Shown here piece after piece: positions 13,759 through 35,329 of a stretch of 64,000 nt of DNA. The stretch's first letter is position 1; every line of letters begins with the position of its first letter. Position numbers and translations under genes: made by a program. The DNA is from Obrimoposthia wandeli (lineage: Eukaryota): positions 1 to 64,000 of the forward strand of contig CDROCS010003532.1 in the NCBI GenBank assembly GCA_977020255.1. Reading direction: 5' to 3'. The notes below the pieces were generated by a model that ran no database searches, was not told the DNA's origin, and saw nothing but the letters and a program-made list of their open reading frames with translations.

Positions 13759-13809
13759 TTAGGTGTCATGCAATTGTCAAGGGAGATGAGGTTGAATCAA
13801 TGTTAACTG

Positions 13810-14307
13810 TTAGTTGTTCCTGTCATTTAGGAACAGCGTGACCTGTTCCAGTGGTAGGTCCGGATATGATGGGGTCTGGCCTTCGAACAGGGCCATCTGC
13901 TGGTTGAGACTGAGGTGCGGGTTGGGATGAAATAGGGTTGTGTAGCGCCCGTGGACCCCGCGATTCTGGATCCATGTTTGGCGACCGCGTTGCCATGAGC
14001 GGCAGTCACGGCTTGATCGCCATTTCTCTCGGAGGGAGAGTTTCGCGTCGCGACGACGCGCGATGCATTCGGGGCATTGGCAATGTTCGCCACCAATGCA
14101 GCTGGTGAGCGAACGAGTGTCCTTGTGTCGACCACGACATTGAAGTGTCCACTCCGCGAAGGGAGCACGGCACAACGGACATGTGACGTGGCCTTCGGGT
14201 CGAGTTCGGGCCCATATATAGAGGCACGCCTCGTGAAACTTGTGACGGCAACCGACAGGGGATGCCGATGCCGTCCAAATTTTCTCCAGGCAGACTGAGC
14301 ACTTCAT
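13810..14307 (-). CDS. RING-H2 finger protein 3 (putative E3 ligase), ~165 aa from ATG 14307
   Basis: CSVC-x-CRHKFHEAC-x-W-x-CPLC RING-H2 pattern followed by a second Cys cluster (CQCPEC). Confidence 0.8.
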   Translation of the reverse strand: MKCSVCLEKIWTASASPVGCRHKFHEACLYIWARTRPEGHVTCPLCRAPFAEWTLQCRGRHKDTRSLTSCIGGEHCQCPECIARRRDAKLSLREKWRSSRDCRSWQRGRQTWIQNRGVHGRYTTLFHPNPHLSLNQQMALFEGQTPSYPDLPLEQVTLFLNDRNN

Positions 14308-14660
14308 CTGCACAAGATAATGATTTTTTTTCAACTTGGGGTTCGACTGTTTTCGTCGTTAGTTTATGAAGTTAAAAATTTAGTTTCAAAACGAAACCTT
14401 AGTTTTTTAATCTTACCGAGTTTTGTTCCGATTTTAGGCATGTTTACACATTCATACTAGGCATAAAAAAATTGTCTTTTAGAATTTCAGTATAATAATT
14501 ACAATTTCAATTAAACAACATACATAAAAATGGTAATGGTCATTTTACAGTTTCACAAGATTATACAATTATGATTACAATTATGGTAGCTAATTTATCG
14601 CGGTATGCGATACACAGGGTAGTTCATGATGTCACGTTCAAGTCAGAAAGTTACCTTCGG

Positions 14661-14966
14661 TTATTGCTGGGAGTTGGGCTGGCCTGTGCGTCGCTCCTCC
14701 ACGCAGAACGAGCACCAGCAATCGCAGATAGTTTTCCAACAGTGTACTATGGGTACCACTGCTTGGAGGCTGTCCTGGTTGTACACGTAGTGCACTGATA
14801 AGGTTGCTCTGCACATCGGGCAGGTTGGGTAGTCGAGGGGATTGTTGCTGTTGGCGATGGGAATCCACGTCTCGAGGCATTCGATGTGGAATAGGTGGTC
14901 GCAGTTGTTGGGTTTGGTGTAGAGGTCCACGATGCTCTCGTAGCAGATGGAACATTCTCCAGACAT
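14661..14966 (-). CDS. RING-H2 finger protein 2 (101 aa)
   Basis: CSIC...CDHLFHIECLETW...CPMC plus C-terminal CWKTICDCWCSFC. Confidence 0.85.
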   Translation of the reverse strand: MSGECSICYESIVDLYTKPNNCDHLFHIECLETWIPIANSNNPLDYPTCPMCRATLSVHYVYNQDSLQAVVPIVHCWKTICDCWCSFCVEERRTGQPNSQQ

Positions 14967-15026
14967 TACTGTGAGAGGGTTGATGTTGAATTTGGGCTCG
15001 ATTGAGGACTGGTGATTGTGTGATGT

Positions 15027-15326
15027 TTACACAAAAGTGGTCGGATTTTGTCGTTCTGACAAACAGTAGTAACACCAACACTCTCCGAAATTCTTCCAAC
15101 AGAATACCACCTGTACATATACATCCTCTTGGTTGGGTTCTATCATGATGAACCTTGCGAATTGTCTTCTGCATACAGGGCAACGAGGGTATGTTGGATG
15201 TCCGAACTGTCCATAAGTTCTGATCCATGTTGATAAACATTCCTCGTGGTGTAAATGGTTGCAGGTTTCGGGTCTTGTTCTTCGTTCGGTGAGATCTTCC
15301 AAACATATTGGGCATTCTTCGGACAT
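15027..15326 (-). CDS. RING-H2 finger protein 1 (99 aa)
   Basis: CPIC...CNHLHHEECLSTW...CPVC plus C-terminal CWKNFGECWCYYC; clear paralog of the next ORF. Confidence 0.85.
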   Translation of the reverse strand: MSEECPICLEDLTERRTRPETCNHLHHEECLSTWIRTYGQFGHPTYPRCPVCRRQFARFIMIEPNQEDVYVQVVFCWKNFGECWCYYCLSERQNPTTFV

Positions 15327-15449
15327 TCTAAATACATGATGATGATTAATTTTTACATGAGTTTTATATATTTCTACTATTTGTACAATCGCTTCTAGAT
15401 ATTTCTACATATTTCACACACTAATTTATCTACAACCTCCTCTGACTTA

Positions 15450-16880: not shown

Positions 16881-19800
16881 TTATCTCAACTCTATCTTTG
16901 TACAACAAAACAAGACGAGTAATATTAATATTATAAATCCAATGATCAGTGCCAGTATTGGATTAGCCAATTCTAGAATACCATAACGTATTGCTGGTAT
17001 CCCTTTACTCTTGATGGTTAATATTTTAAATTTATGTGCACTTTGGTTGGACATGTCACTGAGAAGTACTATTTTAGTTTGTCCAAATATGTAGTCTTCA
17101 CATGTGACAACACTAATTCCATAATGTCCATTAAGTGTTTTCATTTCGGTCGCTGGAACTATACACATTCGTACTGGACATCCTTTTACACACATGATCA
17201 TTACGGCTTTACTGTGGGACGTCTTGATTATTTCTAGGGTGTTGTCTAGATTTCTCAAATGTAAATTATATTCGGATAGTGTCATCAATTCGGCTTTACT
17301 GGTTGGCATGGCTTGTAGTACCAATCCAATTACTACTCCGTAGATCAATCCTTGTGCAACGGTGCACAGGGCCTTGACTGTCCTTTTGCAAAGGGTTTTA
17401 ATTATCATTCGTTTGAGAGATATCTGTTTCTGGTTGGATCGTTTTGTTGTCTGTTGTTGTTTTGACATTTCTTCGATTCCAGTTTTTCCGATAATCAACT
17501 GTACCTGTTTACCTTGTATCATCAACTTTCCGAATCCATTTTTGGCGGACAAGCATGTTTTATGTCCTTCCATCGTTTCAATTATCACTCTCTTACTTCC
17601 ATACTCACGTGTTTTGATGACATCGCCGTCGAATATATACGTCGGTCCTTTTGTATCAGCATCTTTTTGTATTTCCTTTACAATTCGTTTTCTTCGCTTG
17701 TATCCGGCGAATGTTGTTGATATTCGGTCAAGTGCGCGCTGTCGGTCAGCTTCGTAATCCATTCGGAATTGATTCAGTATTCTGTTTTGTGGGTAAAATA
17801 TCGCTTCATTTACTATGTTGTCCTCGATCCTTTCGTCTAGATACACAAGTACTTTGTTCGTCGGTCCATTTGGTCTTTTCATCTTTACAAACTGAAATCT
17901 TTTACTGTCGGTTCTCATAGATCGGAGACATTTTCGGATGATCCACACATCAATTAATCCTAACAACACTAATAGCATCATCAGTGCCGGTGTATGGTAC
18001 TGTATGATGTAGTTGTGGATTTCTTTGAACCATGAACTATTTCCGTGGTTGGAGCCTATCTCTTGTGCTCCCGTTATCGGCATTAGACAACTTAACAAGC
18101 CTATCGCTAGCAATCTTTGGTATTGAAAGCTGGGCACTGTTGTTGTAGCTTCATTTGTTTCTCGTTGTTGCTTCCTCTTTTCAGCGTACTTCTCTATTTC
18201 TCGAACGAGTAACGGTTTGAATTTCGTATCTGGTCTATTCTGTTTGATGTAGACCATCGCTTCTTCTGGTGTATGACCATGGTACTCTACCAACAAGGAT
18301 ACACCTATGGTAGGCGCTAACATCGTACCTTTTTTCTGATATATCAGAACGCCGTTTCCTTCTGTGACTTCGGCTTGGATGGTTTGGGTCAATTTCATCA
18401 GATGTTGTTGTGCATCATTTATTTCTCGATTGGAAGCATGTATGTATCGAGTGGTGTCGTCTTCAGTATTTTGACACAGACTGATTATCTCGTTTCCGAC
18501 TTCAACAATATTAATTACTCGGTTGATACTGTGGAACTTTAATCCAGCAGTATCTATATCTCCTGGATAACATAAAAATACTTTTGGCATTATCTGCGTG
18601 ATTTTGTCGACTCCGGCTAAGAATAACCCGGTCAATGATAATGCTTGGAGGAAATTCTTTTCCTTTGGATCCTCAGGGATGTCGTCCATCCGTCTTTGTT
18701 CTTGCAACATAAGTTGGTAATTTGACAACTGTCCCAAAAAATTAAGATTTGGGTTAGCAATACTTCTTCTCTCCTGTAGGTATTTCAGTGCTTCTAGTAC
18801 CTGCATTCGTCTAGTCTTTATTAGATATGCTAATACTAGGGTTGCTGATCGAGAGATTCCTTTCTGGCAATGTACCAACACTTTTCCTTGGTTTCGGAGT
18901 TCTCTGTGAAGTATTTCGTTTGTTTCTACGAACCATTCGAGAAGATTAGCGTCCATTGAGTCTTTTACTCTTAATGTCATAGCTCTGATTGTCTGGCATT
19001 GTGATTTGTGATTCATTGTAACATTGATCACGTATGTTATCCCTTGTTCCAACAGTTTCTTTTCATCTGTTGCATCTTCCACATTTCCGAGGTATAACTT
19101 ATCTGGAATGATCTCACTCATTGGTTGCATTAATTCTGACTCTTCAAGTTTTAGTCTTTCTAATCTCTTCTCTATCTGTTCGTCGATGTTAGTTAGTTTT
19201 GCCAGTTTCTTTCCTCTCAGCATTCGTATTGCTGGAGAGATATTCATCTTTGTCTCTGATGTCTGTTCCTTTGTTGAGTCTTCTTCCGACTCGGTTTCTT
19301 CTGCAGATTTAATTCGTCTTTCTTGTATATTCTGTTTCACGAATTCTATGTTTTGTCTTTTTCTGCTCTCTTTAGCGAATTCAACCTCCATGGTTTTTCC
19401 GAATCGCTCTATTATGTTATCTTCGGATTCTGTTGATTCTGTATCGTTACTTTCAGGTTCGCTGTCTTGACTAGACTCGCTCGAAGGGTATTCTGGTATG
19501 TCTGTCTGAACTGAAATTAATGAAGGGGTTATAATAATTGGATTGACTGCCCCTGCGTATTTGTGAATCGGATACGGTATTACACTATCTTTAAGTATCT
19601 CAACTTGGAACTGTGCTCCATAGCACATGACAATTGTTTCCAATTTACCCATGATGGACAATCCATCAAAATAGGTAACATTCAGCTTAGATATCGGTGT
19701 TTTCGCATAATTAATTAAATTTACTCGTATCTCGGTTGATGACGGCCATCGATTTTTTAGTAAAATTATAATTTCGTCGTTTATCGATGTAATTACACTT

Positions 19801-21695
19801 GGCGCGGATGATACTATTTCAGCATGATATTTCGGTTGAATTGAGGTTGTCACTTGTTCTCGGATCATATTGATTCTTTGTGGTTTTTTATTTTTAGCTT
19901 CCCACTTCTGGTATCCGCTGTCAATGCGTAACTCTGCCGTTGCTTTGATGATTTTATTGTTGGTCACTTCCGGTTGGGTTGGCGAATGAAATCCTTCTAT
20001 TACGCTCAACCTTACAGATACTTCCGTTTGATCTGTGTCTAACCGGTGAGATTCCGGTATGCAACATACAATTGTCTTTCCGTCAAAGTATTTGGTGTCC
20101 ATCTGACAAATTATCTTTTCAGTGTCTGCGTCGACTAAATGGACTCTCATTAGGTCTCTTTTCCCATGTGAATTACGTAATACCATTATTACATCGTGGT
20201 ATTCTTGTTTGAGTCTTTTTGGTGTACCATGCAGTATGTGACCACCGGCCGGTTCCTTTTCTTCCTGACTGGCTAGTCCTGCTTCAGTACTGTCATAGTT
20301 CTGCCATGCAACTATGTTTGGTGTCAATGTGATTTCGATTATCACTTTCTCAGTCGTAAACACATTGGAATTTTGATGAAGCGCTGCGACTAGTGTATTT
20401 CCGTCGTAGTATGACACTCTAAGTTCGCACAGAAATTCGTTTGTCAGTGCATCTTTCACAATGACGTCTTTCGCCACATCTGTTGGTTGTGTTTTTTCGA
20501 AAACAACTATTATCTCTTCATCTTCTTCCAATATCTCTTGTGGTGCGATGTGTCGGATTACTTCCTTTTCCTCTTGGTGCTTCATTCTGAGCATACCAAT
20601 TCTCGCTGGTTTTTCCTCGCTACCACTCGTCATCATGTTTATGTAGTTCCGATCACTTACCATTCGTGTAAGTTTAATGGTATTGGTATTCGGCTTCAAT
20701 TTCTGTGATCTTAACTCATATCGTGATGCATTATCTTTATTTGGTACTAATTTACATCGATTTGCATGTACAATCATCGGTTCCTTGTTCCGATTCTCCT
20801 CGTTGATTACTTTCAAATTTGTTGAGGTTGTCTGGATCACCTTGTATGGTCCTTTGTATGGTCTATGAAGTTTAAACGATAGACCTGGTTCGATGACTGG
20901 ATAAAATATCATCACTTGATCTCCGACTCTAAATTCATGTGGTTTTGCCTTCTTGTCATATTGTTCCTTGTAACCTTCTTGATTGAATTTCAACTTCAAT
21001 CCAGCTTTGGTCCAAGCATCCTGCAATCTTTCCTTCATGACGACAATGTATTGTTCAGTTTCTAGATACTGAGATGTTGGCTCGGTCCACTTCAGATCCA
21101 TCGGCATATTGTTCTGTCTGAGATACATCAGATAGAATGGTGTGTGACCCGTCGCCTCTCGAACTGAGTTCCTGTAAGCATATAAACATGAAGGTAAATA
21201 TTTATCCCAATCCTCTTGCTTGTCTGAGCAATAGGATTGTACCATCATACATAAAGTTTTATTAAACCTTTCTACTAGACCATCTGTTTGTGGGTGATAT
21301 GGTGAAGTTTGTAACTTCATGATTCCGAATATCTTCGATACTGCTTTTATGACTTCTCCAGTGAAGTTCTTACCTTGATCCGTTAACAACTTTCTAGGCA
21401 CTCCGTATCGAAATATTATCTCTTCCACTAAGATTTGCGCTATTGTTTCAGCTTTCTGGTTCTGCATGGGATATGCTTCTACCCATCTTGTCATGTAATC
21501 CGTAAATACTATGACGTACTTGTTTCCTTTACTTGATTCTCTCAATGGTCCCAATATATCCATTGCTGTGAATTCCATTGGTGCCAAAGGAACTGGCATC
21601 GGTTTCAGTGGAACTTTAGTACGAGTTCCAGTGTCTTTTCTGGTTAAACATACTACATTGTTTACACCATTGTGTAATGTCGTCTTCCATACCAT
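16881..21695 (-). CDS. pol: Integrase core + GPY/F, 3 IPT/TIG-like repeats, DUSP, pseudo-DUSP and membrane modules (C-terminal part of the polyprotein; joined to pol across a frameshift at ~21654)
   Basis: MDILGP / TDQG / ERFNKTL integrase catalytic motifs; KGPY; HCQKGISRS at 18846-18872; several hydrophobic segments near the C-terminus. Confidence 0.9.
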   Translation of the reverse strand: MVWKTTLHNGVNNVVCLTRKDTGTRTKVPLKPMPVPLAPMEFTAMDILGPLRESSKGNKYVIVFTDYMTRWVEAYPMQNQKAETIAQILVEEIIFRYGVPRKLLTDQGKNFTGEVIKAVSKIFGIMKLQTSPYHPQTDGLVERFNKTLCMMVQSYCSDKQEDWDKYLPSCLYAYRNSVREATGHTPFYLMYLRQNNMPMDLKWTEPTSQYLETEQYIVVMKERLQDAWTKAGLKLKFNQEGYKEQYDKKAKPHEFRVGDQVMIFYPVIEPGLSFKLHRPYKGPYKVIQTTSTNLKVINEENRNKEPMIVHANRCKLVPNKDNASRYELRSQKLKPNTNTIKLTRMVSDRNYINMMTSGSEEKPARIGMLRMKHQEEKEVIRHIAPQEILEEDEEIIVVFEKTQPTDVAKDVIVKDALTNEFLCELRVSYYDGNTLVAALHQNSNVFTTEKVIIEITLTPNIVAWQNYDSTEAGLASQEEKEPAGGHILHGTPKRLKQEYHDVIMVLRNSHGKRDLMRVHLVDADTEKIICQMDTKYFDGKTIVCCIPESHRLDTDQTEVSVRLSVIEGFHSPTQPEVTNNKIIKATAELRIDSGYQKWEAKNKKPQRINMIREQVTTSIQPKYHAEIVSSAPSVITSINDEIIILLKNRWPSSTEIRVNLINYAKTPISKLNVTYFDGLSIMGKLETIVMCYGAQFQVEILKDSVIPYPIHKYAGAVNPIIITPSLISVQTDIPEYPSSESSQDSEPESNDTESTESEDNIIERFGKTMEVEFAKESRKRQNIEFVKQNIQERRIKSAEETESEEDSTKEQTSETKMNISPAIRMLRGKKLAKLTNIDEQIEKRLERLKLEESELMQPMSEIIPDKLYLGNVEDATDEKKLLEQGITYVINVTMNHKSQCQTIRAMTLRVKDSMDANLLEWFVETNEILHRELRNQGKVLVHCQKGISRSATLVLAYLIKTRRMQVLEALKYLQERRSIANPNLNFLGQLSNYQLMLQEQRRMDDIPEDPKEKNFLQALSLTGLFLAGVDKITQIMPKVFLCYPGDIDTAGLKFHSINRVINIVEVGNEIISLCQNTEDDTTRYIHASNREINDAQQHLMKLTQTIQAEVTEGNGVLIYQKKGTMLAPTIGVSLLVEYHGHTPEEAMVYIKQNRPDTKFKPLLVREIEKYAEKRKQQRETNEATTTVPSFQYQRLLAIGLLSCLMPITGAQEIGSNHGNSSWFKEIHNYIIQYHTPALMMLLVLLGLIDVWIIRKCLRSMRTDSKRFQFVKMKRPNGPTNKVLVYLDERIEDNIVNEAIFYPQNRILNQFRMDYEADRQRALDRISTTFAGYKRRKRIVKEIQKDADTKGPTYIFDGDVIKTREYGSKRVIIETMEGHKTCLSAKNGFGKLMIQGKQVQLIIGKTGIEEMSKQQQTTKRSNQKQISLKRMIIKTLCKRTVKALCTVAQGLIYGVVIGLVLQAMPTSKAELMTLSEYNLHLRNLDNTLEIIKTSHSKAVMIMCVKGCPVRMCIVPATEMKTLNGHYGISVVTCEDYIFGQTKIVLLSDMSNQSAHKFKILTIKSKGIPAIRYGILELANPILALIIGFIILILLVLFCCTKIELR

Positions 21696-23778
21696 CCCAA
21701 TGGTATTTCTCTTTGATTCTGGCTATTGTCTTTCGCCCTGACAGATGTCCTCCTAGTGTTCCATCGTGATACTGGATCATCACTGCTGTTTTCAATGACT
21801 TCGGAATTACTACGACTATCTTTCCGACATTGTTGACAATATACAAGATTCCTTCTTTTATCGAGTATTTTTTCGTCATTTCATCGTTTAGATCTCCTTT
21901 CACCAACAATTCTTTGATTAGACTCAGTTCTTCATCTTCTTTCTGTTCTTTGATGATCTCTTTGTCTATTTTACCCGTTTTCAGCAAAATCGTTAGTAGA
22001 TTTGCTTCTCCTATTTGGTCATTGGTTTCATCTTCTTCTGGAATTATGTTTCCTTTCTCGTCTACATTTGTCAATCTCGACAAACAATCTGCGTTGCCGT
22101 TCGACTTTCCGGTTCTATAACGGATTTCTAGATCGAATTCGGCCAATTTTAGAAACCATCTGTTTAATCTACTCATCTCATCTCTATGTTTATATAAGAA
22201 CTGTAGTGGTTTGTGATCTGTATATAGGAATACTTTTTGTCCTAGCAAGTAGTGTCTGTACTGTCTACATGAATACACTATGGCTAGACATTCCTTTTCG
22301 ATAACAGAGTATCCTCTTTCGGCTCTGTTTAATCCTCTACTCGCATACGCGATGACGTGTTCCCTTCCTTCGTCATCCTCTTGTCCCAATACTGCTCCTA
22401 CAGCATAGTTACTTGCATCTGTCATGAGTATGAATTGTCGGTTTATATCTGGAAACGCTAATATTGGTGCTTTTATCAGTCTTTCTTTTAAATGCTCGAA
22501 CGCTTGTTGTGCTTCTTTTCCCCATATGAACTTCTCATCTTTCCTCGTCAACTTTCTCAATGGTGTTGCTATATCTGAAAAATGTTCAACAAATCGTCTA
22601 TAATAATTCACAAGACCTAAAAAACTCTGTATTTCTTTAACAGTCTTTGGCGCTAAATGCGCTTTTACTTTCTCGATCTTTGCTGGATCAGGTCGGATGC
22701 CTTCTTTCGATACTATATGTCCTAAAAATGTTACTCGCTCTTTAGCCCATTCGCATTTTGTAGGTTTAACTTTTAATTTAGCGTTTTCCAGTCTTTTAAA
22801 TACGACTTCAAGATTTTTTAAATGTTCTTCGAACGTTTTCGAAAATATTATTATGTCATCGATATAAACCATCGTGTTTGCACACGATGCGAGTACAAAA
22901 TTCATGCAACGCTGAAATGTTGCTGGAGCTCCTGTTAGTCCGAATGGCATTTTTTCGCATTCGTATAGTCCATCTCCGCAGGAAAAGGCTGTTTTGTGTT
23001 TATCCTCTTCCTCTATCTCGATTTGCCAGTATCCACTCTGCAAATCCAATGTCGTAAAATAATCTGAATTACCCAATTTATCGAGCATCTCTTCGATTCT
23101 AGGTAATGGATACACATCTTTTCTTGTGATCTTGTTCAGTTCTCTGAAATCTATACAGAATCTCATTTTCCCATCCTTCTTTTTTACCAACACCACAGGT
23201 GCTGAGAATGGTGAAAAACTCGGTCTAATTACTCCTGTTTTAGACATATCTTCAATCTGACTTTTTACTTCATCTTGTAGCTGTAATGGTACTCGATATG
23301 GTCTTCTTCTGACTACTTTGTCTTCTGTCAGTGGTATTGTGTGTTTTATGACAGGTGTTTCTCCTATGTCATATGGATTTTTTGCAATTACTTTCGGAAA
23401 TTTATGTATTAGATCAAGTAATTGTTTCTTTTCTCTAGTTGTCAGTCTTTCTGATTGGATTACTATTTCTTCGTAATCATTCGTGTCTTTATCGAGTTTC
23501 ATAGCACACACAGTGGGATTCTCCATTTGTGCTATCTTTCCCAACCTCATTCCTCTGTATAATAGGATGTCATTGTTGGTTGTATTCATCAGTCTGACTG
23601 GTATTTTGTGGTTTTCAATCAGACATACTGTACTCACAACTGGTAATTCGTATTTCTCTATGAAATCTCGTGATGGTTCGAACACAACTGGTCCTTTATC
23701 TTCTGATAACGTGTGACCTTGAATGAGAAATTGTGATCTTTTACCGATTTTTATAGGATTCTCTATAAATACATCAAT
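21616..23778 (-). CDS. pol: Reverse transcriptase, RNase H and integrase Zn finger (frame open from 23778)
   Basis: RFCIDFRELN, LDLQSGYWQI, MPFGL, YIDD (22855-22866), TDASNYAVGAVL, HKPL, and HDGTLGGH...WCKQC. Confidence 0.95.
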   Translation of the reverse strand: MDVFIENPIKIGKRSQFLIQGHTLSEDKGPVVFEPSRDFIEKYELPVVSTVCLIENHKIPVRLMNTTNNDILLYRGMRLGKIAQMENPTVCAMKLDKDTNDYEEIVIQSERLTTREKKQLLDLIHKFPKVIAKNPYDIGETPVIKHTIPLTEDKVVRRRPYRVPLQLQDEVKSQIEDMSKTGVIRPSFSPFSAPVVLVKKKDGKMRFCIDFRELNKITRKDVYPLPRIEEMLDKLGNSDYFTTLDLQSGYWQIEIEEEDKHKTAFSCGDGLYECEKMPFGLTGAPATFQRCMNFVLASCANTMVYIDDIIIFSKTFEEHLKNLEVVFKRLENAKLKVKPTKCEWAKERVTFLGHIVSKEGIRPDPAKIEKVKAHLAPKTVKEIQSFLGLVNYYRRFVEHFSDIATPLRKLTRKDEKFIWGKEAQQAFEHLKERLIKAPILAFPDINRQFILMTDASNYAVGAVLGQEDDEGREHVIAYASRGLNRAERGYSVIEKECLAIVYSCRQYRHYLLGQKVFLYTDHKPLQFLYKHRDEMSRLNRWFLKLAEFDLEIRYRTGKSNGNADCLSRLTNVDEKGNIIPEEDETNDQIGEANLLTILLKTGKIDKEIIKEQKEDEELSLIKELLVKGDLNDEMTKKYSIKEGILYIVNNVGKIVVVIPKSLKTAVMIQYHDGTLGGHLSGRKTIARIKEKYHWDGMEDDITQWCKQCSMFNQKRHWNSY

Positions 23779-24129
23779 TTAGTTTATTTGTCTGTTTGAT
23801 GTGCTATCCTTCAATCTTGGATCTTGTAAATCAATACTTATCCCTTTAAGTTGTGATAGTACATCCATTCCTAAAATTGTAGGTTCAGGACATTCTTTCA
23901 TGATTCTAACTGGTATAGTGATCGTATTACGTCCAATTATAAATGTACACGGTAATATTCCCGTCACTTTTACAGGGTCTCCATTGACCGATACCAAGAA
24001 TTCATCTGGTTCTGCCATTGTTCGTTTCTGTTCCTCTGTCAGACAATCTTCACTTACTATCGAAGCTACAGCACCTGTATCAATTAAGGCTTCTACTCTT
24101 AAATTATTTACTCTAATGATAGCTGCTGG
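23779..24129 (-). CDS. Second aspartic protease, in frame with but bounded by TGA (24130-24132) and TAA (23779-23781)
   Basis: Translating past the ORF1 TGA gives PAAIIRVNNLRVEALIDTGAVASIVS...ILGMDVL (DTG at 24073-24081). Confidence 0.85.
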   Translation of the reverse strand, partial: PAAIIRVNNLRVEALIDTGAVASIVSEDCLTEEQKRTMAEPDEFLVSVNGDPVKVTGILPCTFIIGRNTITIPVRIMKECPEPTILGMDVLSQLKGISIDLQDPRLKDSTSNRQIN

Positions 24130-27100
24130 TCACTGTGCTCCATTTATATTTCCCATATGGTATATTGTATTTATCGAATTATTACACTCTGTCGGTCCAC
24201 TTCCTTTGTTTGGATAGTGAAATCTAATATTTCTCACTTGTCGATCTATTATTCGTCGACAAATCGGACATGATACCATTTCCTTCGCACATCTCCGACA
24301 TGTTCTTACATGTCCGCATGGTAAAAAGGCAACTTCTATTTTGTTGACCATGCAAACTGCGCATTCCGGATCTTCTAGTACGTATTCTAGTTCATTTATG
24401 TACTCTTTCTCTTTTGTTTCAATTGTACTGTCATCTTTATCTTTCAGTAATTCAAAAATTGATCCGTATCCATTTCGCGTAGTTTTTATTTTTAATTCTA
24501 CCAAATCTCTGATTCTTTCTGCTTCTTTTGGATATAACCTTCTCACGAATGACACTACCGGTGTGTCTTGTTGAGCCAAAATCTCTTTCCGTGTGATTTG
24601 GTATTCGATTATACATTCGGTTTTCTGTTCTTTTTGCTTTATTTTGTTTTTTAACATACAAAACTCGCAAAATTCATGATGTAAAATTTTCTTAGGTAAC
24701 TCAAGAGTATATCTGTCGATAATTCGTTCTTTTTTACACTTGTGGCATTTAATTACGTCTTTACCATCCTTTTTTATAGCAAAAAGTCCCTTTTTTGCCA
24801 ATTTTTTAAGTCTTGGATCTTCGAAAGTTATTTCTCGATATTGTTCGTCACATTCGTTCACTTCTCGCATGACTTCGAATATATCTTCAATTCGGCTATT
24901 TGTTATTACTCTACCTACTATTAGAGCTGATTTTCCTTTTGGAATCTCGTCACTGTTATCGAAATCGGGTGCTTTTCCCATTTGGATTTCTGGTACGTTT
25001 GAAGTTTTCAGTTTCAAAAGAAATGGACAATTTGGTGCATCTCTTTTATGACGTTTCATTGGGTTTTCATTGTTTTCCCACTCTCTAAACTCTACTCTAC
25101 ACCATACGCATCGTACTTCTTCCTCAGAACCATAACTATTTGTCGCGTTTAACATTTGTAAACCTGTTCTTGCCATTTTACGTGCCATTTCTTTTGAATA
25201 GTACAGTTCTAATATATTTCGTCTTTTTTTCTCGAATCTCATGGGATCCTTTTCTGACAGATTCACATATGTTATTTTCCTCCTCGTCATCTCTTGTGGT
25301 CCGAGGTTTACGTTTTTGTAGTGAAGTATCGACTTTACTAGCGCTTCCTGTTTTTTGTCTTGGTACGAATTTCCCATACGGAACGTAGTGTATTTTTCCT
25401 TTTCGACTATAGGTCCTCTCAACATTTTTATCTCTCTCACTGAACTGTCATTCTTATAACTCTTGTTGTTTGGTAATATAATTATTCCTTCAAACATTCT
25501 TATTACGTCCATCCCAATCATGACTGGACTACCGCAATCTGTTAATATTCTAGCATTTAACTGCAATGCTCTCCCATCGATATTCAACGAACATTTCAGT
25601 GTTCCTTCCGACACTACATCTGTACCATTCACGTTAACAAATGTCTGTTTTCTAGGACATACTTCTCTTAATTCTTTTGATGACAAGATTTCTTTACTCA
25701 GTACTGATACTGCGGATCCAGTATCAACTTCGGCAAGATATTCTCTTCCGTTCAATGTTACTGCTACTTGTGGTGGAGCATTTGGATTCTCATTTGGATT
25801 CTCATTTGATATCCTAGACTTCAGAATTCTTCTGGAATTATCTTTTTTGTCTTTTTCCTCTGCTTGTGGAATCTCACTGTAGCTCACTTTAGGCCATCTT
25901 ATCATTAAGATGCCTCTCTTGAACTTTTCCTTCTCTTCCTTTAGTTCCTTCATTGGATATAGGTTTAACGCCACTTCTTCCTTGTCTGGTAACGGAATCT
26001 TTGGTTTTCCTGGTATCTTTGCATATACTCCTGGGCTATCATTATCGTCGTCGTTGTCGTCTCGATAATTTCTTGGGTCTCGCATCATGGTTCTCGTTTG
26101 ATGTTGTTCCTTCTTGAGGGCTCGCAACTCGTTCTCGTGATGATGGTGCATTAGATATTTTGCTAAAAATGGAAAACATCCAATTATAAGTTGCCAGGTG
26201 ATTCCGGTTATCCTGTATAAACTATACGTAGACAACACCTGGGCTATAATTACCTGCACAAATTTAATTATAACATAAATACCTATGATACCCGAAAATA
26301 GTTGTCCTAAAACAAGGAATTTCCCCCACATCTTTCTAAGTGTCTGATGTGCTGCTTCCTTGAAATGACTTGGCGATAATAACATATCAAAATTCGCATA
26401 TCTAGCTCCTGGCGGTAATGCTCGATGTACCATCTCCGTAAGTACTCTGGCTCTTTTTACTGGAAACATTATTTCGTTCCATGCCGCTTTTAAGTCTTTT
26501 TCATTGTACAATCCTGCGTTCTCCATATTTTCCACCGCTTCGGATTTCATTTTACCTTTGAGATTCGTCATTTTTATCATCGCTGGGGTTTTCGTTGGCT
26601 TTCGATCAGGTAACATTATCCATAGATCATTCGTCATCTGATATTCAGATGCCATTATATTAGAGCAGCTGATTTCTTTAGTTGGAGTGTCTTTTGGAAG
26701 TATTATTCTCGTGATTGGTTCAACAAAGAGTTCTTGTAAATTATACGTTACTGCCAATTCACTCGTACATCGGTCTGTTTTTCTCAACTGTACTTCTACT
26801 TTATTACACTTGTAAGTATACAATACTTCTCCCATGGTTTTAGCAAATACTCCTTCATCCAAGGGTAATAATGGTGCTACCATGTCTGGATTCGTAATAG
26901 CTAATGCTAACTTTGTTCTTACGATCTCTTTGTTTAGCTGGCAATCTCTTTCGATCATCATCCGATATAACTGTTCCATTTGCATCAATCCTTTATGATA
27001 ATAAAAATCAATTTTATTATTAAAATACGTGTGTAGCTGCATATCTCTAGGTTTTAGCTTGGTTTCTGCCAATGCTATTGTTTCTTTGGACAAAACTATT

Positions 27101-30100
27101 CCAGGATAGTTTGTAGTACTAACAGTCATTCCGCATCGCGCTTTGTTTCTCTTTTTAATAAATATCAATCCTTCTTCTATTGATGTTGCCATTAACAGTG
27201 TAGGTGTCTTTGTCATTGGAATTGGTCTTGTTTCATTGAGCAATCCTTTTCCAACTTTATTATACAGGAACCCTTCTCCATCTTTATTATACAGGAATCC
27301 TTTTATTTTATTAAAGCTAATCTCTTTCAAAAATACTAAAGAGCATTGCTTCGGATTCACGTGATACACAATTGTGGATTCACCTGTAAAACAAGATGCA
27401 TCTGTCATTTTACATTCTGGATACTTCATCATTCGTTGTGTCTTTTTATCAAAATTGGCAGTCCATGATTTTAATTCAATTTTGTAAGTTACGTCCATTA
27501 CTAACTCTGTTACTTTGGTTCCACGCACGTTTTTTGTTCCTCCGTCACAAGATCCATCAGCCCATCGTTGTCCAACTCTCGTGACTGTTTCGTATCGTCT
27601 CACTCCAATTTTTACAACAGGTTTGTAATTCTTGTCTATTTCTATTGTTCCTGTACGAAATGCGTCTTCGCAATCTCTCGGAAAAACCTTATGTGCTTTG
27701 TACGGTGTGGTAGGTGTGATTTCCGACATAAAACTTCTATGGCCACAATAGAATTCGTGATAACTTGAATGAACTGAACATTCTTTCACTTCTACTTGTA
27801 CTTTATCAACATCCTGATACACAAAGTAGTTTTCAACACCTTTAACTTCTAATTTTGACTGTTGTGATTCTGGACAGTCTTCGCTGTCAAGCAGTGAATA
27901 CTTTTGTCCCATCTTTGGTATGCTACAGTCGTATGCTATCAATCCTGATGCCTGTTGCATTCCCATGAACATTACTAACATCATCATCATCATTGTTGTG
28001 GACATATTTGGTTGATTGTTTCTTTCTTTTGGACGGTATTGTTTATTTTCTCTTTGACGATTCTCATGACATTGTTCGTCATCGTCTTCGTTCATTTCCA
28101 CAATGGTTTTAGCGTAGTCACTTAATTTTGCCCAACCTCCGTTTTCGTCAATTCGTCTTTGTAACACATTCTCGATCAAATACATCGCTTCATTTATTCC
28201 TTGTTTGACTTCGTGAGGTTGGCTCGTTCGTTCCGTCAATTGGAAACATAGATATGTGATTGCTGTAATTAACTTTTTATTTGTAGTCTGGCTTCCACAT
28301 AATCTCGCTAAAACTTCACCGTCATAAAATCTATCTATCGATGCATGGTATACATGATTCGCGGTCATTCTCTTTACTGCAGACATCTGTGATCTAACTG
28401 CTTTAGTCAAATTGTCTGTTATATCGGTTGTTTCATCTCTGTACATTTTGAACAACTTCGGCTTCACTTGCCTGAGAATTCCCGTAAGTATATCTTTACT
28501 ACTTGGAGCTTCTGAATTCATATCACCTCTGATATCTTCATTCCTCTCTGCACTATACTGCTCTAATGACGCTGCTAACTGTCCAATGCTTAGATGTCTC
28601 TCTTCATCAGTTTGTGGTGCAGTTAGAACATTTCGTAATATACTTCCGTCTTTTCTAGGTCTTCCAGGTCCTCTTCGAAAATACTGATACTCAGTTTGAT
28701 TCTCTCCTGGATCATACGGTTCACCATTATACTGTATCTCTTGACTTGGTCCTTCTTCATGGCCAATCTCTTCATTTTGTCGCATCATCTGCTCTGCTTG
28801 TCTATCTTTGTATGCAGCATGCCAAATTGGTGAATCTAAATCTACAATTTCGGAGATTTCGTCTTCTCCTACTAGTTGGGTTACGTTTTCGTTTTGTCTC
28901 ACTTGGTTAGCTGTATTCGCGACTTCATCTTGTCTGATTTGAATTATATCTGGTTCTGGTGGTACCTCGACCACTGGAGTTGTCAACTCATTTTCTAAAT
29001 TCATGTCTTGTAATTCTGCTACGTACGGTTCTGGTGTGGATGTCTTGTTCCAAGCTTCAGCTACATCGTTATCTCCGCTTTCGCTTGAACTGTCTAAAAT
29101 TTCTATAGGCGATTTTATCATTTCTAATGCAGTGTTTAATATCTCCGTTAATCCTTCATTATCTACTAACTCTTGACGTCCTACAGTGATGATATCAATT
29201 TTTTCTTCTAATTCGTTTCCTATCGGATATCCACACTCGACTGGTACGTCCTCATCATCTAGTGATCTCCCTTTATAATGGAACAACATATTCATTCCAT
29301 AAATTTCAAGTTTCTCGGCCAACTTTTTTCGAATAGTTTTCATTGTCTGATACACGTTAAGTTTTTCATGTATTATCTGTCCGGAAATTAATCGAAGCGA
29401 AATTTTCATCGTTCCCTTTTGGTTTGATCTCTGTACGTAACGACCATATCCTTTCAATAATCCTCGTGGTATTTCTTTGTAACCCAAGTTATCATGACTA
29501 AGTTTAACCAATTCTGCTCGCACTTCTTCCAATCTGTGCACTTTAATTGTTTGCAATTTGGCCAAAACTTCTGGAGCTTCACTCGTTTCATCTAACGGTT
29601 GATTCAACGTCTCCTTAGCTTCACTAATTATCTTTTTTACATTTTCCATACTCGTAGCATTTCTTGCTGCTTCTACATGATCAGTCATAGGTTGTGCGTT
29701 ACACGTTTTCTCTATTGGTGTCTCATACGCTTCTAGTATTTGATTCATTAAATCATTCATCTCTTCTCTCGAGTGTAGACTTTTTTCTTGTTTCGACAAC
29801 GTAGATGAATTCGCCATCTTTGTATGTGGTGAATCTTTAATTATTCCCAACATTCGTTCAAATTTACTATCACTATCTTCAAAATCTATTTCGCGTCGAA
29901 GTTCGGTCTCGCGATTCCTATCGCTGTCATCGTTTACATAACTAAAATTTCCTTTCGGTTTCGGCGAACTCTCACGACTATTCGTCTTGTCAACATTATT
30001 ATTATTATATCTACCGGAATTATTATATCTCTCAGCTCCTTGCTGTCCTACGTAATTATTGTATCTCTCAGCTCCTTGCTGTCTGTCTGCATAATTATTG

Positions 30101-31662
30101 TATCTACCTGGTGACTGTTGTCTATCTGTATACTGATTATTCGGTCTCCATGGCTGTGGAGTATATCCACCACCTCTATTCCATGGCGGAGGTGAATTAT
30201 ATCCTCTATAATTATTTCCAAAATTATTATTACCGAAATTATTATTTCCAAATCTGTTAGTTCCGAACTCCTTACTTCTCGTACAATCTCTCGAATAGTG
30301 ACCCATTTGTTTACACGTGTAACACATTATTCTCCCTCGAATATCTATCTTATTTTGTTCATCTTCGAACTGCACTCGACGACTATTCTGTCTATTATCA
30401 TAGCGTCCTCTAAAATCATTTCTTCGGAAATTCGATTCAAAACCGCTTCCTCGATTATTGAATCTTCCGTCACTACTTCCTGTATTATTCCCAAATCGAG
30501 AGTCACTTCGCTCTCCTCTGTTTGCGCTATAATTCCTATCGTCTCCTCTCCAAGGTTGGCGATTTCCTGAATTATCTCTATTAAATCTATTCCTGGAATC
30601 ATCTCTATTTCTATTCCACGAATCATTACTATTTCTACCTCTTGAATCATCTCGATTCCTGTTCCAAGACTCACTATTATTTCTACCTCTCGAATCATCT
30701 CGATTCCTACTTCGGAAATTATCTCTGTTTCCGTTACTGGATTCATCTACTTTTTCAAACTTATTTTGTCCGTAATTTCGATTCTGAAAATTACTCGGTT
30801 CTGTTTTATTCACAAATACCTTTGTCTTATCGTCGTCACCTGCAGTCATTGCGTAAATTGCCAATGCTGCGTTATTTTTTATATTTTTCTCAATCTCTCT
30901 CGCCTTTCGCAAGGCGTTATCAAAATCATTTGTATCCGATACTGCTAATAACACTTTAATATCCTTTTTCAATCCTCCTCTAAATATATCTAACAAAACT
31001 TCTGCCATTTCATTTTGGTTCCACTCATTTTCCGCTACTTGTGCTTCTTGAGCCACAAGACTACCGTCCTGATTTCTCATTATTCTTCTTGGGTACGCTC
31101 TTGCGGCCAAGGTTCTCAACACATACGCGTATTCATTCACGCCTTCGTCATGTTTCTGTTTCCGTTCTCTCATGATTCGCTTATTTACTTTTGCTAAGTC
31201 TCCCAATACTAATTTTCCAATAAAAGCATTTTCCAACGTTGGCCAGTCTAAACGTTCTGCTTCTGTCAAGTGTTTATACACTTCAAGTGCTAATCCGGTT
31301 AAGTGTGCCTGCACTCGGACACATTTTTCTTTATCGTTCCATCCTTGAACATCTGCACAACTTGAATATTCTGCGAGGAAGTCACAAATACTTTCCTCAT
31401 CTCCTTTAAACTTTGTAATCTGCAATGATCCTGAAAAGTTGGGTCTCAACGTCGCATTTAAGGCTTGTTCCAACTGTTCGGCATTCATGTCACCTACATT
31501 ATTTCCTGCATTATTATCTACTTGAGCTCCTGGGTGAGCCATATTTTCAGCTATATCCTCTTCAACTATTTCTTCAATATTATTCAATTGAAAGTCCTCA
31601 ATCACTACTGGATTGGCAATTTCAAATTCTTCTGGGTTTATGTCACCAAATAATTCAGTCAA
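24130..31662 (-). CDS. gag: 2510-aa polyprotein: Gag-CCHC, ubiquitin-like domain, AT-hook, Bcl-2-like domain, chuvirus/gB-type glycoprotein, protease 1, BIR, degenerate BIR, RING
   Basis: CYTCKQMGHYSRDC (30283-30324); Ubl-like 29175-29409; RRGPGRPRK 28651-28677; IDENGGW ~28122-28150; signal + LIAYDC 27925-28005; TM ~26230-26325; DTG 25717-25725; BIR 25015-25240; C3HC4 RING 24255-24363. The listed start is TTG; the first ATG is at 31542. Confidence 0.92.
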   Translation of the reverse strand: MTELFGDINPEEFEIANPVVIEDFQLNNIEEIVEEDIAENMAHPGAQVDNNAGNNVGDMNAEQLEQALNATLRPNFSGSLQITKFKGDEESICDFLAEYSSCADVQGWNDKEKCVRVQAHLTGLALEVYKHLTEAERLDWPTLENAFIGKLVLGDLAKVNKRIMRERKQKHDEGVNEYAYVLRTLAARAYPRRIMRNQDGSLVAQEAQVAENEWNQNEMAEVLLDIFRGGLKKDIKVLLAVSDTNDFDNALRKAREIEKNIKNNAALAIYAMTAGDDDKTKVFVNKTEPSNFQNRNYGQNKFEKVDESSNGNRDNFRSRNRDDSRGRNNSESWNRNRDDSRGRNSNDSWNRNRDDSRNRFNRDNSGNRQPWRGDDRNYSANRGERSDSRFGNNTGSSDGRFNNRGSGFESNFRRNDFRGRYDNRQNSRRVQFEDEQNKIDIRGRIMCYTCKQMGHYSRDCTRSKEFGTNRFGNNNFGNNNFGNNYRGYNSPPPWNRGGGYTPQPWRPNNQYTDRQQSPGRYNNYADRQQGAERYNNYVGQQGAERYNNSGRYNNNNVDKTNSRESSPKPKGNFSYVNDDSDRNRETELRREIDFEDSDSKFERMLGIIKDSPHTKMANSSTLSKQEKSLHSREEMNDLMNQILEAYETPIEKTCNAQPMTDHVEAARNATSMENVKKIISEAKETLNQPLDETSEAPEVLAKLQTIKVHRLEEVRAELVKLSHDNLGYKEIPRGLLKGYGRYVQRSNQKGTMKISLRLISGQIIHEKLNVYQTMKTIRKKLAEKLEIYGMNMLFHYKGRSLDDEDVPVECGYPIGNELEEKIDIITVGRQELVDNEGLTEILNTALEMIKSPIEILDSSSESGDNDVAEAWNKTSTPEPYVAELQDMNLENELTTPVVEVPPEPDIIQIRQDEVANTANQVRQNENVTQLVGEDEISEIVDLDSPIWHAAYKDRQAEQMMRQNEEIGHEEGPSQEIQYNGEPYDPGENQTEYQYFRRGPGRPRKDGSILRNVLTAPQTDEERHLSIGQLAASLEQYSAERNEDIRGDMNSEAPSSKDILTGILRQVKPKLFKMYRDETTDITDNLTKAVRSQMSAVKRMTANHVYHASIDRFYDGEVLARLCGSQTTNKKLITAITYLCFQLTERTSQPHEVKQGINEAMYLIENVLQRRIDENGGWAKLSDYAKTIVEMNEDDDEQCHENRQRENKQYRPKERNNQPNMSTTMMMMMLVMFMGMQQASGLIAYDCSIPKMGQKYSLLDSEDCPESQQSKLEVKGVENYFVYQDVDKVQVEVKECSVHSSYHEFYCGHRSFMSEITPTTPYKAHKVFPRDCEDAFRTGTIEIDKNYKPVVKIGVRRYETVTRVGQRWADGSCDGGTKNVRGTKVTELVMDVTYKIELKSWTANFDKKTQRMMKYPECKMTDASCFTGESTIVYHVNPKQCSLVFLKEISFNKIKGFLYNKDGEGFLYNKVGKGLLNETRPIPMTKTPTLLMATSIEEGLIFIKKRNKARCGMTVSTTNYPGIVLSKETIALAETKLKPRDMQLHTYFNNKIDFYYHKGLMQMEQLYRMMIERDCQLNKEIVRTKLALAITNPDMVAPLLPLDEGVFAKTMGEVLYTYKCNKVEVQLRKTDRCTSELAVTYNLQELFVEPITRIILPKDTPTKEISCSNIMASEYQMTNDLWIMLPDRKPTKTPAMIKMTNLKGKMKSEAVENMENAGLYNEKDLKAAWNEIMFPVKRARVLTEMVHRALPPGARYANFDMLLSPSHFKEAAHQTLRKMWGKFLVLGQLFSGIIGIYVIIKFVQVIIAQVLSTYSLYRITGITWQLIIGCFPFLAKYLMHHHHENELRALKKEQHQTRTMMRDPRNYRDDNDDDNDSPGVYAKIPGKPKIPLPDKEEVALNLYPMKELKEEKEKFKRGILMIRWPKVSYSEIPQAEEKDKKDNSRRILKSRISNENPNENPNAPPQVAVTLNGREYLAEVDTGSAVSVLSKEILSSKELREVCPRKQTFVNVNGTDVVSEGTLKCSLNIDGRALQLNARILTDCGSPVMIGMDVIRMFEGIIILPNNKSYKNDSSVREIKMLRGPIVEKEKYTTFRMGNSYQDKKQEALVKSILHYKNVNLGPQEMTRRKITYVNLSEKDPMRFEKKRRNILELYYSKEMARKMARTGLQMLNATNSYGSEEEVRCVWCRVEFREWENNENPMKRHKRDAPNCPFLLKLKTSNVPEIQMGKAPDFDNSDEIPKGKSALIVGRVITNSRIEDIFEVMREVNECDEQYREITFEDPRLKKLAKKGLFAIKKDGKDVIKCHKCKKERIIDRYTLELPKKILHHEFCEFCMLKNKIKQKEQKTECIIEYQITRKEILAQQDTPVVSFVRRLYPKEAERIRDLVELKIKTTRNGYGSIFELLKDKDDSTIETKEKEYINELEYVLEDPECAVCMVNKIEVAFLPCGHVRTCRRCAKEMVSCPICRRIIDRQVRNIRFHYPNKGSGPTECNNSINTIYHMGNINGAQ

Positions 31663-32026
31663 ATAAAAGCTGTCGGTTGAAACCGCTGATTGATTAACGT
31701 CTCTTTCTGATACGTTTTCTTCGACTCTAGTCTTTTCTGTTACTTTGTTATCTGTTTGGGAACCTGTTCAATTCGGTTAACTTTATTATTATTTATCTCT
31801 TCCTGGGGAATCTGACTTTGTCTTCTAGTATTATACGCGGGTCCTTTTCTATTATCCGTCGTCTTATCAATTATGTATTCGTTTACGATATCAATTTACT
31901 TATTATTTTATCTTATTTCACAATTCTTATTTTACGATTTCTTATCTCTTTAATTAGTTCGAGGACACGTCTCCCGACTTAACCTATTCAATTAATTACT
32001 TCGAGTATCAATCCACTCGATTCTCA

Positions 32027-32545: not shown

Positions 32546-32566
32546 ATTCGCTGTGTCCGACGAGCT

Positions 32567-32584
32567 ATCCTCACTCGGGCACCA
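32567..32584 (-). promoter_or_regulatory. Primer-binding site TGGTGCCCGAGTGAGGAT
   Basis: An 18-nt sequence complementary to a canonical tRNA 3' end (...CCTCA CTCGGGC A CCA), 8 nt inside the LTR. It resembles elongator tRNA-Met; identity unconfirmed. Confidence 0.75.
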
Positions 32585-32592
32585 CTTTAATA

Positions 32593-34317
32593 TGTTGGGG
32601 TTTCTATACGAGACTTGTATAGATCCTCTTGTGTGCGGAGGGCCCCAACGTGAGTTCGAATAGAAGCAGGTCTTAAAGTTGGTCGTGGCCTACTTAGTGT
32701 TATGGTTGCCTATCTCTATTGCTTATCTGAAGGTGTTTGCTTTTCGATGTCTCTTAGTCTGAAGGGTTTAGAACAGTACTTTTAATGTAGGAAATCGTTT
32801 ATTGTTAACACACTAGGCTAATGAACAATACGTTTACGTACGTATTTTCTAAAAAGTTGTAGTAAAATTCCTAAGACTTTCGTAAGTCTCTGCACAAGTG
32901 AGGATGAACCACGTATCGATTTTACGGTTATGTTTGTTTTAGTCGCTAGAGTCTTTACTCTAAAAATAGGGATTGATTTTAGAGAGCCGTTGCTCTAAAA
33001 TTTAAGTAGCCTAAAAAGTCTGAAGGGTTTGTTTCCAAAATGTCTTCACGACAACAGATTACCTTATTTCAAATTTTCTTATGATTACAAAATTCCAATT
33101 TGTCTTCGCGACAACAAATTACTATTACAAAACTTCAATTTGTCTTCACGACAACAATTATTATTACAAAACTTCAATTTGTCTTCACGACAACAAATTA
33201 CTTCATTACGACAACAATTACTATTACAATTAAATGTCTTCACGACAACAAATTATTATTACAAAACTTAAATTTGTCTTCACGACAACAAATTATTATT
33301 ACAAACTTCAATTCGTCTTCACGACAACAATTACTATTACAAAACTTCAATTTGTCTTCACGACAACAATTACTATTACAAAACTTAAATTTGTCTTCAC
33401 GACACAGCTTACTATATTTCAGATTTTCTTACGATTACAAAATTCCTTTATTTCAAATTCTTTTACGATTACAAAGATTACTTTATTTCAAATTTTCTTA
33501 CGATTACAATTCTTCTGGCTCACCTTCCAAATCTGTAGATAATTTCCATCTCGTTCGGATCCTAGTTCCGGCGCTCCTTGTCTCTTCGGAACAGTGACTT
33601 CCTGTCCGCCGATTCGTGGTTTACGCCCTTGACAGTTGGCGTGTCTCGTTTCTGTTCTGTATGTTTGTGTTAATGATTTTCTTTTCTAACTGTTTTCTTA
33701 CCTCTGCTTGGCGTTCGGTCTCGATCAGGAATGATATTGTTTCTGCCGAGAATTCTCTTGTTAATGGCTTGATTTGGGCTCGTTTCCGTGGATCGGAATA
33801 AGATTGTTTCTGCCGAGAATTCTCTTTTTAATGGCTTGATTTGGGTTCGTTTGATAGGCTGATTTCCGTAGACTTATATAGTCTATTTCTCTGCTGATTT
33901 CCCCGGTGACGTGGTCTGTCAATCAATCTTCTGGTTCGCTGCGGAAAGTATTTATTTTAGCTAAATTAATTAATTTTCTCACTTCAGGAACAGCTGTCGG
34001 GACGTGGCTGCTGACGTCGACTGGATTTCGGTTTGTACTTCTTCTTTTAAATTTCCTTTTCCTAATTAATCTTCTTTCTTGTAATGACTTATCTTCAGAG
34101 CTATATCTTTTTTGGGCCCTTTTCTTAAGTCTAACTTCAATATAAACATACACATTTCACACGACCTTCGTGGTCCTCTAATATTCAATTTTCCTTTTAC
34201 TTTAATATTTTACTTCTAATTTTCAATTTTATTTAATTTTAACCTTGTTTTCAAGGATTTTCATTTTAGTATAAATTCGACTTAATTATTTAATTTTAAC
34301 AAAACCCAATCCTAACA
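32593..34317 (-). mobile_element. 5' LTR of the giant element (1725 bp)
   Basis: TGTT...AACA ends, adjacent PBS, both ends homologous to the solo LTRs; AATAAA at 32798-32803. Confidence 0.9.
33040..33400. repeat. ~39-bp tandem array inside 5' LTR, ~9 copies
   Basis: Unit CTTCACGACAACAATTACTATTACAAAACTTCAATTTGT. Confidence 0.85.
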
Positions 34318-35298: not shown

Positions 35299-35329
35299 AA
35301 TTAAACTATAATATTGGCATAAAAATGAT

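Follow-up and report, generated by a model that had tools for sequence, protein, structure and literature searches.

The 64,000-nucleotide stretch of Obrimoposthia wandeli DNA analysed here (positions 1 to 64,000, forward strand, of contig CDROCS010003532.1 in assembly GCA_977020255.1; hereafter the window) carries on its minus strand what is, judged from its sequence, a Burro-like GAG-ENV-POL giant long terminal repeat (LTR) retroelement. This element encodes two retropepsins, PR1 and PR2, which lie in the same frame on either side of an inhibitor of apoptosis (IAP) protein, with an in-frame UGA parting the IAP from PR2; the finding rests on one damaged copy. A possible reading, held just short of probable, is that PR1, being present in every Gag-Env-IAP chain, frees the IAP from the Env tail, with PR2-Pol made as a minor readthrough product. 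Burro itself, its internal Env and its IAP are already published, and the twin-protease layout is apparently the new part: no account of twin proteases in such elements was found in the literature, with the reservation that the layout may already be drawn in the figures of the Burro papers. The text of PMC6431247 describes Burro as having one protease and one continuous open reading frame (ORF), whereas two proteases with an IAP and a stop between them are present here. In the available part of PMC13524379, which concerns platyhelminth errantiviruses, the main text mentions 'protease' once and BIR or Burro never.

A preliminary description of the window had reported two proteases with intact DTG motifs bracketing a BIR-BIR-RING module. 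Both observations hold: the proteases match Pfam families and share strand and frame, and the module is present, with a second, divergent BIR that Pfam misses and with a UBA-like domain to be added. The description made no mention of the stops around PR2 (UGA at 24132-24130 and TAA at 23781-23779). The features concerned are as follows.

24130..31542, minus strand: ORF1, 2,470 aa from its first ATG (31542), encoding Gag, CCHC, BCL2-like segment, Env, PR1 and IAP, and ending in TGA (ORF and Pfam)
25477..25773, minus strand: PR1, retropepsin, ORF1 aa 1999-2097 (catalytic Asp codon 25725-25723)
25006..25251, minus strand: BIR1, canonical CX2CX16HX6C (Pfam E 3.8e-11; model matches BIR structures, Z 8-11)
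24658..24855, minus strand: BIR2, divergent, CX2CX18HX3C (profile and zinc-ligand comparison)
24418..24603, minus strand: UBA-like helical domain (scores weakly against the XIAP UBA: Z 5.3, root-mean-square deviation 2.1 over 53 aligned; alignment to cIAP1 also weak)
24241..24372, minus strand: IAP-type C3HC4 RING (Pfam E 1.9e-11)
24130..24132, minus strand: in-frame UGA with C as the next nucleotide, one codon ahead of the first Pro in PR2; a candidate for programmed readthrough, or decay (sequence)
23833..24129, minus strand: PR2, retropepsin, with no Met ahead of the DTG (catalytic Asp codon 24081-24079)
23779..23781, minus strand: in-frame TAA that parts PR2 from Pol, most probably damage to this copy (sequence)

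Two retropepsins of one lineage

Both protease domains were recognised by Pfam, PR1 as gag-asp_proteas (E 9e-6) and Asp_protease_2 (24.4 bits, cut-off 24.3) and PR2 as gag-asp_proteas (E 3.7e-9) and RVP (E 1.4e-6), with scores of 26.6 bits for PR1 versus 37.5 bits for PR2. The clan AA, A2-like retropepsin pattern of D-T/S-G, a flap Gly and hydrophobic-hydrophobic-G-x-D is intact in each, in the form of DTG, a flap VNG and a C-terminal GMDV, and the nearest Atlas clusters of both are retropepsins (feature score 0.95-0.96). A six-frame scan of the window revealed no third protease. Pairwise alignment, proposed as a check in the preliminary description, gave 30 identities over 99 residues (30%) without a single gap (E 2e-17); the Smith-Waterman score was 150, compared with a maximum of 59 in 2,000 shuffles, and the unusual VNG, two Cys and GMDV are common to both domains. 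The two had been called clear paralogs, and while the homology stands, duplication is unproven, the 30% identity being about the divergence seen between the Envs of related sublineages.

The sole outgroup retrieved was P0151, a 283-aa protein of the prawn Macrobrachium nipponense, which was also the only match among 3,930 candidates in a PR1 plus PR2 profile search (a weak negative). The score of 150 between PR1 and PR2, as against 57-70 to the two domains of P0151, shows at the sequence level that PR1 and PR2 belong to one lineage, without proving duplication. P0151 has two tandem retropepsin domains with a DTG in each, and is an independent case of a doubled retropepsin.

At the DNA level the two domains are 47% identical, and a recent DNA duplication was ruled out by the lack of any meaningful blastn match. 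Identity by codon position was 0.43/0.59/0.40, against expected values of 0.30/0.27/0.34, with no indels in 99 codons. Since third positions are near chance (0.40 versus 0.34) while second positions are conserved (0.59 versus 0.27), the split is old, and both proteases look constrained since then. The 150 residues on each side of PR1 and PR2 do not align (scores of 28 and 29, equal to the shuffle means of 28 and 29), which indicates that only the protease domain is doubled.

Failure of the flanks to align would also be expected if template switching had brought PR1 and PR2 together out of two Burro-like sublineages, as Gag-Env-PR1 plus IAP-PR2-Pol or plus PR2-Pol; such a chimera is compatible with either of the expression schemes considered below, and is a plausible if somewhat doubtful origin. 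Of the 12 Env pairs shown for Schmidtea mediterranea GAG-ENV-POL sublineages, 11 are 31-38% identical (excerpts of PMC13524379), similar to the 30% of the proteases, and Gag differs somewhat from the other segments in third-position A (0.38 versus 0.46-0.49, in a comparison that excludes the BCL2 and Env-tail segments, 2 of 12). Against this, third-position A is nearly uniform across PR1 (0.47), the IAP (0.48), PR2 (0.48) and RT-RNase H (0.46), and the two domains align over 99 residues without a gap and share the unusual motifs. The score gap to the outgroup likewise argues for a common lineage, and other domains are doubled within the element (two BIR, two phosphatase and three RING-H2 domains).

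The stop between IAP and PR2

ORF1 comprises 2,545 open codons (2,470 when counted from the first ATG) and is ended by the UGA, the next codon being the Pro placed opposite the PR1 start in the alignment. Beyond it follow, in the same frame and each separated by one stop, ORFs of 116 and 720 codons, and then, after a frameshift in the integrase, an ORF of 1,613 codons; thus the frame through Pol, a single continuous ORF in Burro, is interrupted in this copy by two stops and one frameshift. Were 2-3 stops scattered at random over 5,364 codons, the probability of one falling so precisely would be 0.2-0.3% for a 5-codon window or 1.1-1.7% for the 30-codon linker, both windows having been picked after the fact. 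One-step nonsense options give TGA in 30% of cases and 16% of codons start with C. The remaining in-frame stops of the long frames, at 23781 and 16883, are both TAA-A.

UGA followed by C is prone to readthrough, and in-frame stops ahead of PR-RT-IN are known in Ty3/gypsy elements (excerpts of PMC10085805); the UGA-C in frame with Pol conforms to that leaky context. Indeed, Tj1, Tosmo1-3 and Tcry1 (PMC10085805) and Tca2 (excerpts of PMC2194720) similarly have an in-frame UGA directly upstream of PR-RT-IN. As described in these excerpts, however, the readthrough elements have a single protease behind the stop and neither Env nor IAP in ORF1, and their conserved context is UGA-CT (PMC10085805) rather than the UGA-CC found here. 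An own start codon or splice acceptor for PR2 was ruled out: there is no Met before the DTG and no upstream pyrimidine tract, so independent initiation or splicing is unlikely. A hairpin directly follows the TAA (23778-23740, minus strand; z -1.9, equalled in 7 of 200 shuffles, best of 5 folds); it is too weak to argue for double readthrough, although both ends of PR2 carry stops.

A proposed division of labour

Retropepsins act as dimers, and retroelements normally use one protease, which is switched on at particle assembly. Taking the domain order, the frame, the position and context of the stop, the intact motifs and the constraint on both proteases as directly read, a scheme can be proposed in which topology, readthrough, activity, substrates and selective logic would be as follows. 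ORF1 (Gag-BCL2-like-Env-PR1-IAP) would be translated in bulk as far as the UGA, so that the RING, like that of cellular IAPs, would lie close to a free C-terminus. Hydropathy analysis places one strong transmembrane segment of Env at ORF1 aa 1815-1850, ahead of PR1, with a second, weaker hydrophobic stretch after it. PR1 would then lie on the cytosolic side of the membrane, immediately ahead of the IAP, and PR1, IAP and Pol would presumably hang from the cytosolic Env tail as opposed to Gag. PR1 could feasibly dimerise, plausibly via clustered Env tails, and cut the IAP free, and may process Gag too. A small fraction of ribosomes would pass the UGA to produce PR2-RT-RH-IN, in which PR2, in the usual Pol position, would mature the Pol enzymes. 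The IAP would need release, and a stop just past the RING would both provide the free end and lower the output of Pol. A second protease would be kept because such a stop would otherwise leave the abundant product without one; PR1 would supply the protease of the abundant product and PR2 would stay with Pol. The preliminary description had suggested that the two proteases divide the work between Env tail/IAP and Pol, an idea that fits the anatomy and would become sharper with the stop counted, PR1 then belonging to the Gag-Env-IAP product and PR2 lying behind the stop with Pol.

The position of the stop finds a parallel in related IAPs, described further below: all four related RING-bearing proteins end 13-29 residues past the CPxC motif of the RING, and the window IAP runs for 42 residues before its stop. 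Among 135 proteins with a RING CPxC motif, 108 end at 13 residues and 132 within 29.

In its more general form the proposal, put forward tentatively, is that two functional retropepsins are fixed in a Burro-like subfamily, an abundant Env-tail PR1 that frees an anti-apoptotic IAP and a readthrough-only PR2 for Pol, with one leaky UGA setting the ratio of effector to enzyme; the readthrough chain could also form a PR1-PR2 heterodimer. If true, coupling a second protease to an accessory IAP would make the liberation of the host manipulator independent of particle maturation, and a stop between IAP and Pol would give much IAP at little transposition cost. It would also offer a concrete mechanism for the tolerance of such elements in flatworm stem cells, where the IAP of Burro1 is reported to be beneficial: B-IAP reportedly protects stem cells from caspase-mediated apoptosis (Lee et al. 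2026, Dev Cell, 10.1016/j.devcel.2026.03.001, as cited in the available part of PMC13465017). If, on the other hand, the stop results from decay, or the Burro papers already show this layout, the observation becomes an architectural footnote.

Several points weigh against the division of labour. The copy is decayed, as indicated by the integrase frameshift and the two TAA stops and by an element 3' end that breaks off near 13,000 with no 3' LTR retained. The TAA also lies near a PR2 boundary, from which it is evident that chance stops at boundaries do happen, and no stable RNA fold was found 3' of the UGA (z +0.12 to +1.17 in all three windows; local folds, without pseudoknots or long-range pairing). 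The sequence around the gag UGA of Tca2 failed to direct readthrough in Saccharomyces cerevisiae (PMC2194720, in the part available). From the first ATG to the stop at 16881 there are 4,887 codons, close to the single 4,873-aa ORF of Burro1, with 5,140 aa given for the element of D. tigrina (PMC6431247). An acidic residue is found two places before the catalytic Asp of PR1, where the retropepsins compared have a hydrophobic one; this may reflect a different specificity or decay. Finally, none of the IAP relatives (0 of the best 150 of 4,814 matches) is joined to a protease, and the four RING-bearing relatives are predicted proteins whose C-termini could be contig ends and which may be host genes.

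The length agreement is what would be expected if the UGA were itself decay and the element encoded a single polyprotein of ~4,900 aa. Both proteases would then be present in every chain and excise the IAP at its two ends. They may also form a tethered PR1-PR2 heterodimer in cis, active without particle assembly. Other breaks in the copy and the lack of a readthrough structure in the RNA are consistent with this, as are the dimeric action of retropepsins and the tandem two-protease protein of the prawn. However, decay does not readily account for the exact placement of the UGA and its UGA-C context, nor for related IAPs stopping just past the RING in four of four cases, and the single polyprotein seems unlikely, if well worth keeping in mind.

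The IAP

The order of domains in the IAP is BIR, divergent BIR, UBA-like, RING, and with a zinc-binding BIR and an IAP-type RING, both above Pfam cut-offs, it is a RING-bearing IAP; by domain content it would be a ubiquitin ligase. BIR2 is a real but divergent BIR as judged from its profile. The direct comparison of BIR1 with BIR2 was not significant (244 of 2,000 shuffles scored as well), and only the profile test revealed the domain: HHalign against 250 canonical BIRs gave 95% and E 2.9e-8, with a score of 39.2 compared with 14.8 for the best of 30 column shuffles, and the zinc ligands CX2CX18-19HX3C are kept in all six aligned sequences. The single-sequence fold of the IAP (pLDDT 32) was not used, and only the confident parts of a six-sequence model (pLDDT 52) were.

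Cellular IAPs of the cIAP1/XIAP/DIAP type resemble the protein in the order BIR, UBA, C-terminal RING and in the fold of BIR1, but the window IAP differs in being embedded in a polyprotein, in the altered zinc-ligand spacing of BIR2, in a RING on a long separate branch and in a longer tail. B-IAP of Burro1 is likewise an element-encoded protein with BIR and RING (PMC13465017, in excerpt), whereas the present arrangement is of BIR, divergent BIR, UBA-like domain and RING between two proteases.

An exhaustive search, of which the best 150 of 4,814 matches were considered, identified five proteins that match the window IAP across the interdomain regions at 28-32% identity. Four of these bear a RING and group with the window IAP in a RING tree, apart from 55 canonical IAPs and on a long branch, with support of 100/99; the tree used 60 columns and 60 of 125 RINGs, and its bootstrap is not fully settled. 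One relative, P0001, has 81 unrelated residues upstream; a protease remnant at its N-terminus was considered and rejected, the scores of 24-25 being near shuffle level. The PR1-IAP region had no match in word-index protein searches, one covering 4,619 candidates and the other 8,000 (weak negatives), and a search of bacterial and archaeal genomes with the RT gave no relatives among 36 pattern matches.

These results bear on the suggestion, made in the preliminary description, that the IAP was captured during a duplicating recombination. Capture of a host IAP in the same event that doubled the protease would explain why the IAP is exactly bracketed by both proteases and has a cIAP/XIAP-like order of domains. 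However, the IAP sits in a long-branched clade with four relatives that are not joined to proteases, the residues upstream in P0001 are unrelated, the composition of the IAP is fully element-like, equal to that of the proteases and RT, and no flanks are duplicated. The IAP lineage is, by these comparisons, old and diversified, and it is found with no protease attached, a point against capture at duplication. The suggestion thus finds no support and is judged improbable, a later move of an IAP cassette appearing more plausible.

That one of the two proteases, PR1 being the likelier, survives as a non-catalytic or dying relic serving only as an in-frame spacer is a distinctly improbable explanation: the lower Pfam score of PR1 and its atypical acidic residue near the active site would fit, but its DTG, flap and C-terminal motifs are intact, there are no indels, second codon positions are conserved well above third positions and its Atlas score to retropepsin clusters is 0.95. 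An assembly artefact can be dismissed almost entirely, since 47% DNA identity excludes a doubled repeat and PR1 and the IAP lie within one 2,545-codon open frame, even if giant elements are known to trouble assemblies (excerpts of PMC11410931).

The element as a whole

The element extends on the minus strand from an LTR at 34317-32593 down to ~13,000 and is set off from its AT-rich flanks by higher GC and a strong strand skew. Its architecture and the low GC of the flanks point to a triclad flatworm as the probable host. Its remaining features are as follows.

32593..34317, minus strand: 5' LTR, 1,725 bp, TG...CA termini (similar to solo LTRs at 7852-9578 and 55419-57103)
32567..32584, minus strand: sequence like a primer-binding site, starting TGG, 8 nt inside the LTR end (read from sequence)
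30280..31308, minus strand: region resembling a Gag capsid, with a single CCHC zinc knuckle (zf-CCHC E 5e-5; Retrotrans_gag E 0.004, below cut-off)
28132..28317, minus strand: weak BCL2-like segment (Pfam Bcl-2 E 0.12; position as in Burro, PMC6431247)
26158..27942, minus strand: Env, chuvirus/gB-type fusion glycoprotein (Monjiviricetes_fusion E 9e-94)
23329..23778, minus strand: unassigned spacer of ~150 aa separating PR2 from RT, at the place of the dUTPase-like domain of Burro (no Pfam match; no significant PDB match)
21291..23187, minus strand: RT, RNase H and integrase, the zinc-binding region of the last being broken by a frameshift (overlap 21616-21722)
18228..19097, minus strand: two dual-specificity phosphatase (DSP) domains after integrase, the second degenerate (DSPc E 4e-40 and E 6e-6)
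13810..15404, minus strand: three short accessory ORFs with RING-H2 domains, close to the truncated 3' end (Pfam)

By Pfam the domains run CCHC, Monjiviricetes fusion glycoprotein, protease, BIR and RING in ORF1, then protease, then RT, RNase H, integrase and DSP phosphatase; the Pol order PR-RT-RH-IN is that of Ty3/gypsy elements (Metaviridae). Burro elements of planarians combine a BCL2 motif and a BIR with an Env lying in frame between Gag and Pol (PMC6431247), and an Env so placed and a BIR are both present here. Burro1/GYPSM1 and Burro-2 to -4 are alike in having Gag with CCHC, an in-frame fusion-glycoprotein Env, a BIR, a spacer between PR and RT, accessory ORFs and ~4,900 codons, and their BCL2-like motif has a weak candidate counterpart here (PMC6431247). 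Giant size is also shared: Burro elements have internal regions of up to 25 kb and long LTRs, and here the internal region measures ~19.5 kb plus a 1.7-kb LTR despite the missing 3' end. The window element differs from Burro (PMC6431247) in its one CCHC, in the lack of a MATH or ankyrin match and in its two DSP domains after the integrase. Structure comparison of the BCL2-like segment gave no BCL2 match.

The platyhelminth GAG-ENV-POL errantiviruses of PMC13524379 (in excerpt) share the order GAG-ENV-POL and an Env of the HSV/gB type; the window Env resembles, by eye only, the six S. mediterranea entries presented there. Entries 5 and 6, at CM039680.1:211892823-211909760 and CM039681.1:91387725-91405689, are 16.9 and 18.0 kb long, compared with 14.5-14.9 kb for entries 1-4, a pointer to a possible extra insert.

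Two solo LTRs of the same family lie in the window, at 7852-9578 (flanked by CAAG/CAAG) and 55419-57103 (AAAT/ATAT). The first could pass for the element's 3' LTR; it was ruled out as such, and is taken to be a separate insertion and a solo LTR, because a 4-bp target duplication of its own flanks it and its identity is no more than 78-87%, so that the true 3' LTR is missing. The gap of 8 nt between the 5' LTR end and the primer-binding-site-like sequence (32592-32567, minus strand) is unusually long, and tandem repeats occupy the 5' leader at 31981-32546.

One of the DSP domains at 19097-18228 has an intact HCxxGxSRS and the other is degenerate; DSP is absent from the Burro domains listed in PMC6431247. 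The adjoining stretch at 18200-15450 (minus strand; ~900 codons) has several signal- or transmembrane-like hydrophobic stretches and, apart from a weak neurexophilin match (E 0.015), no convincing Pfam match; it is broken by the TAA at 16883-16881 and terminates in a double stop. Each of the RING-H2 ORFs (15404-13810) has its own Met and, together with that of the IAP, they bring the RING domains of the element to four. An array of 47-bp repeats is present at 13214-13759, near the point at which the element breaks off.

Other repeats in the window

Neither Rfam matches nor ARAGORN tRNAs were found in the window. Two inverted copies of another repeat, 79% identical, are located at 43002-45138 and 59498-62715, and an ORF nearby (62864-63385) has a weak match to the Pox_A32 ATPase (E 0.004) and is possibly a Maverick-like remnant. 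A short repeat, 78% identical between its copies at 10540-10749 and 35089-35299, also weakly resembles one LTR end.

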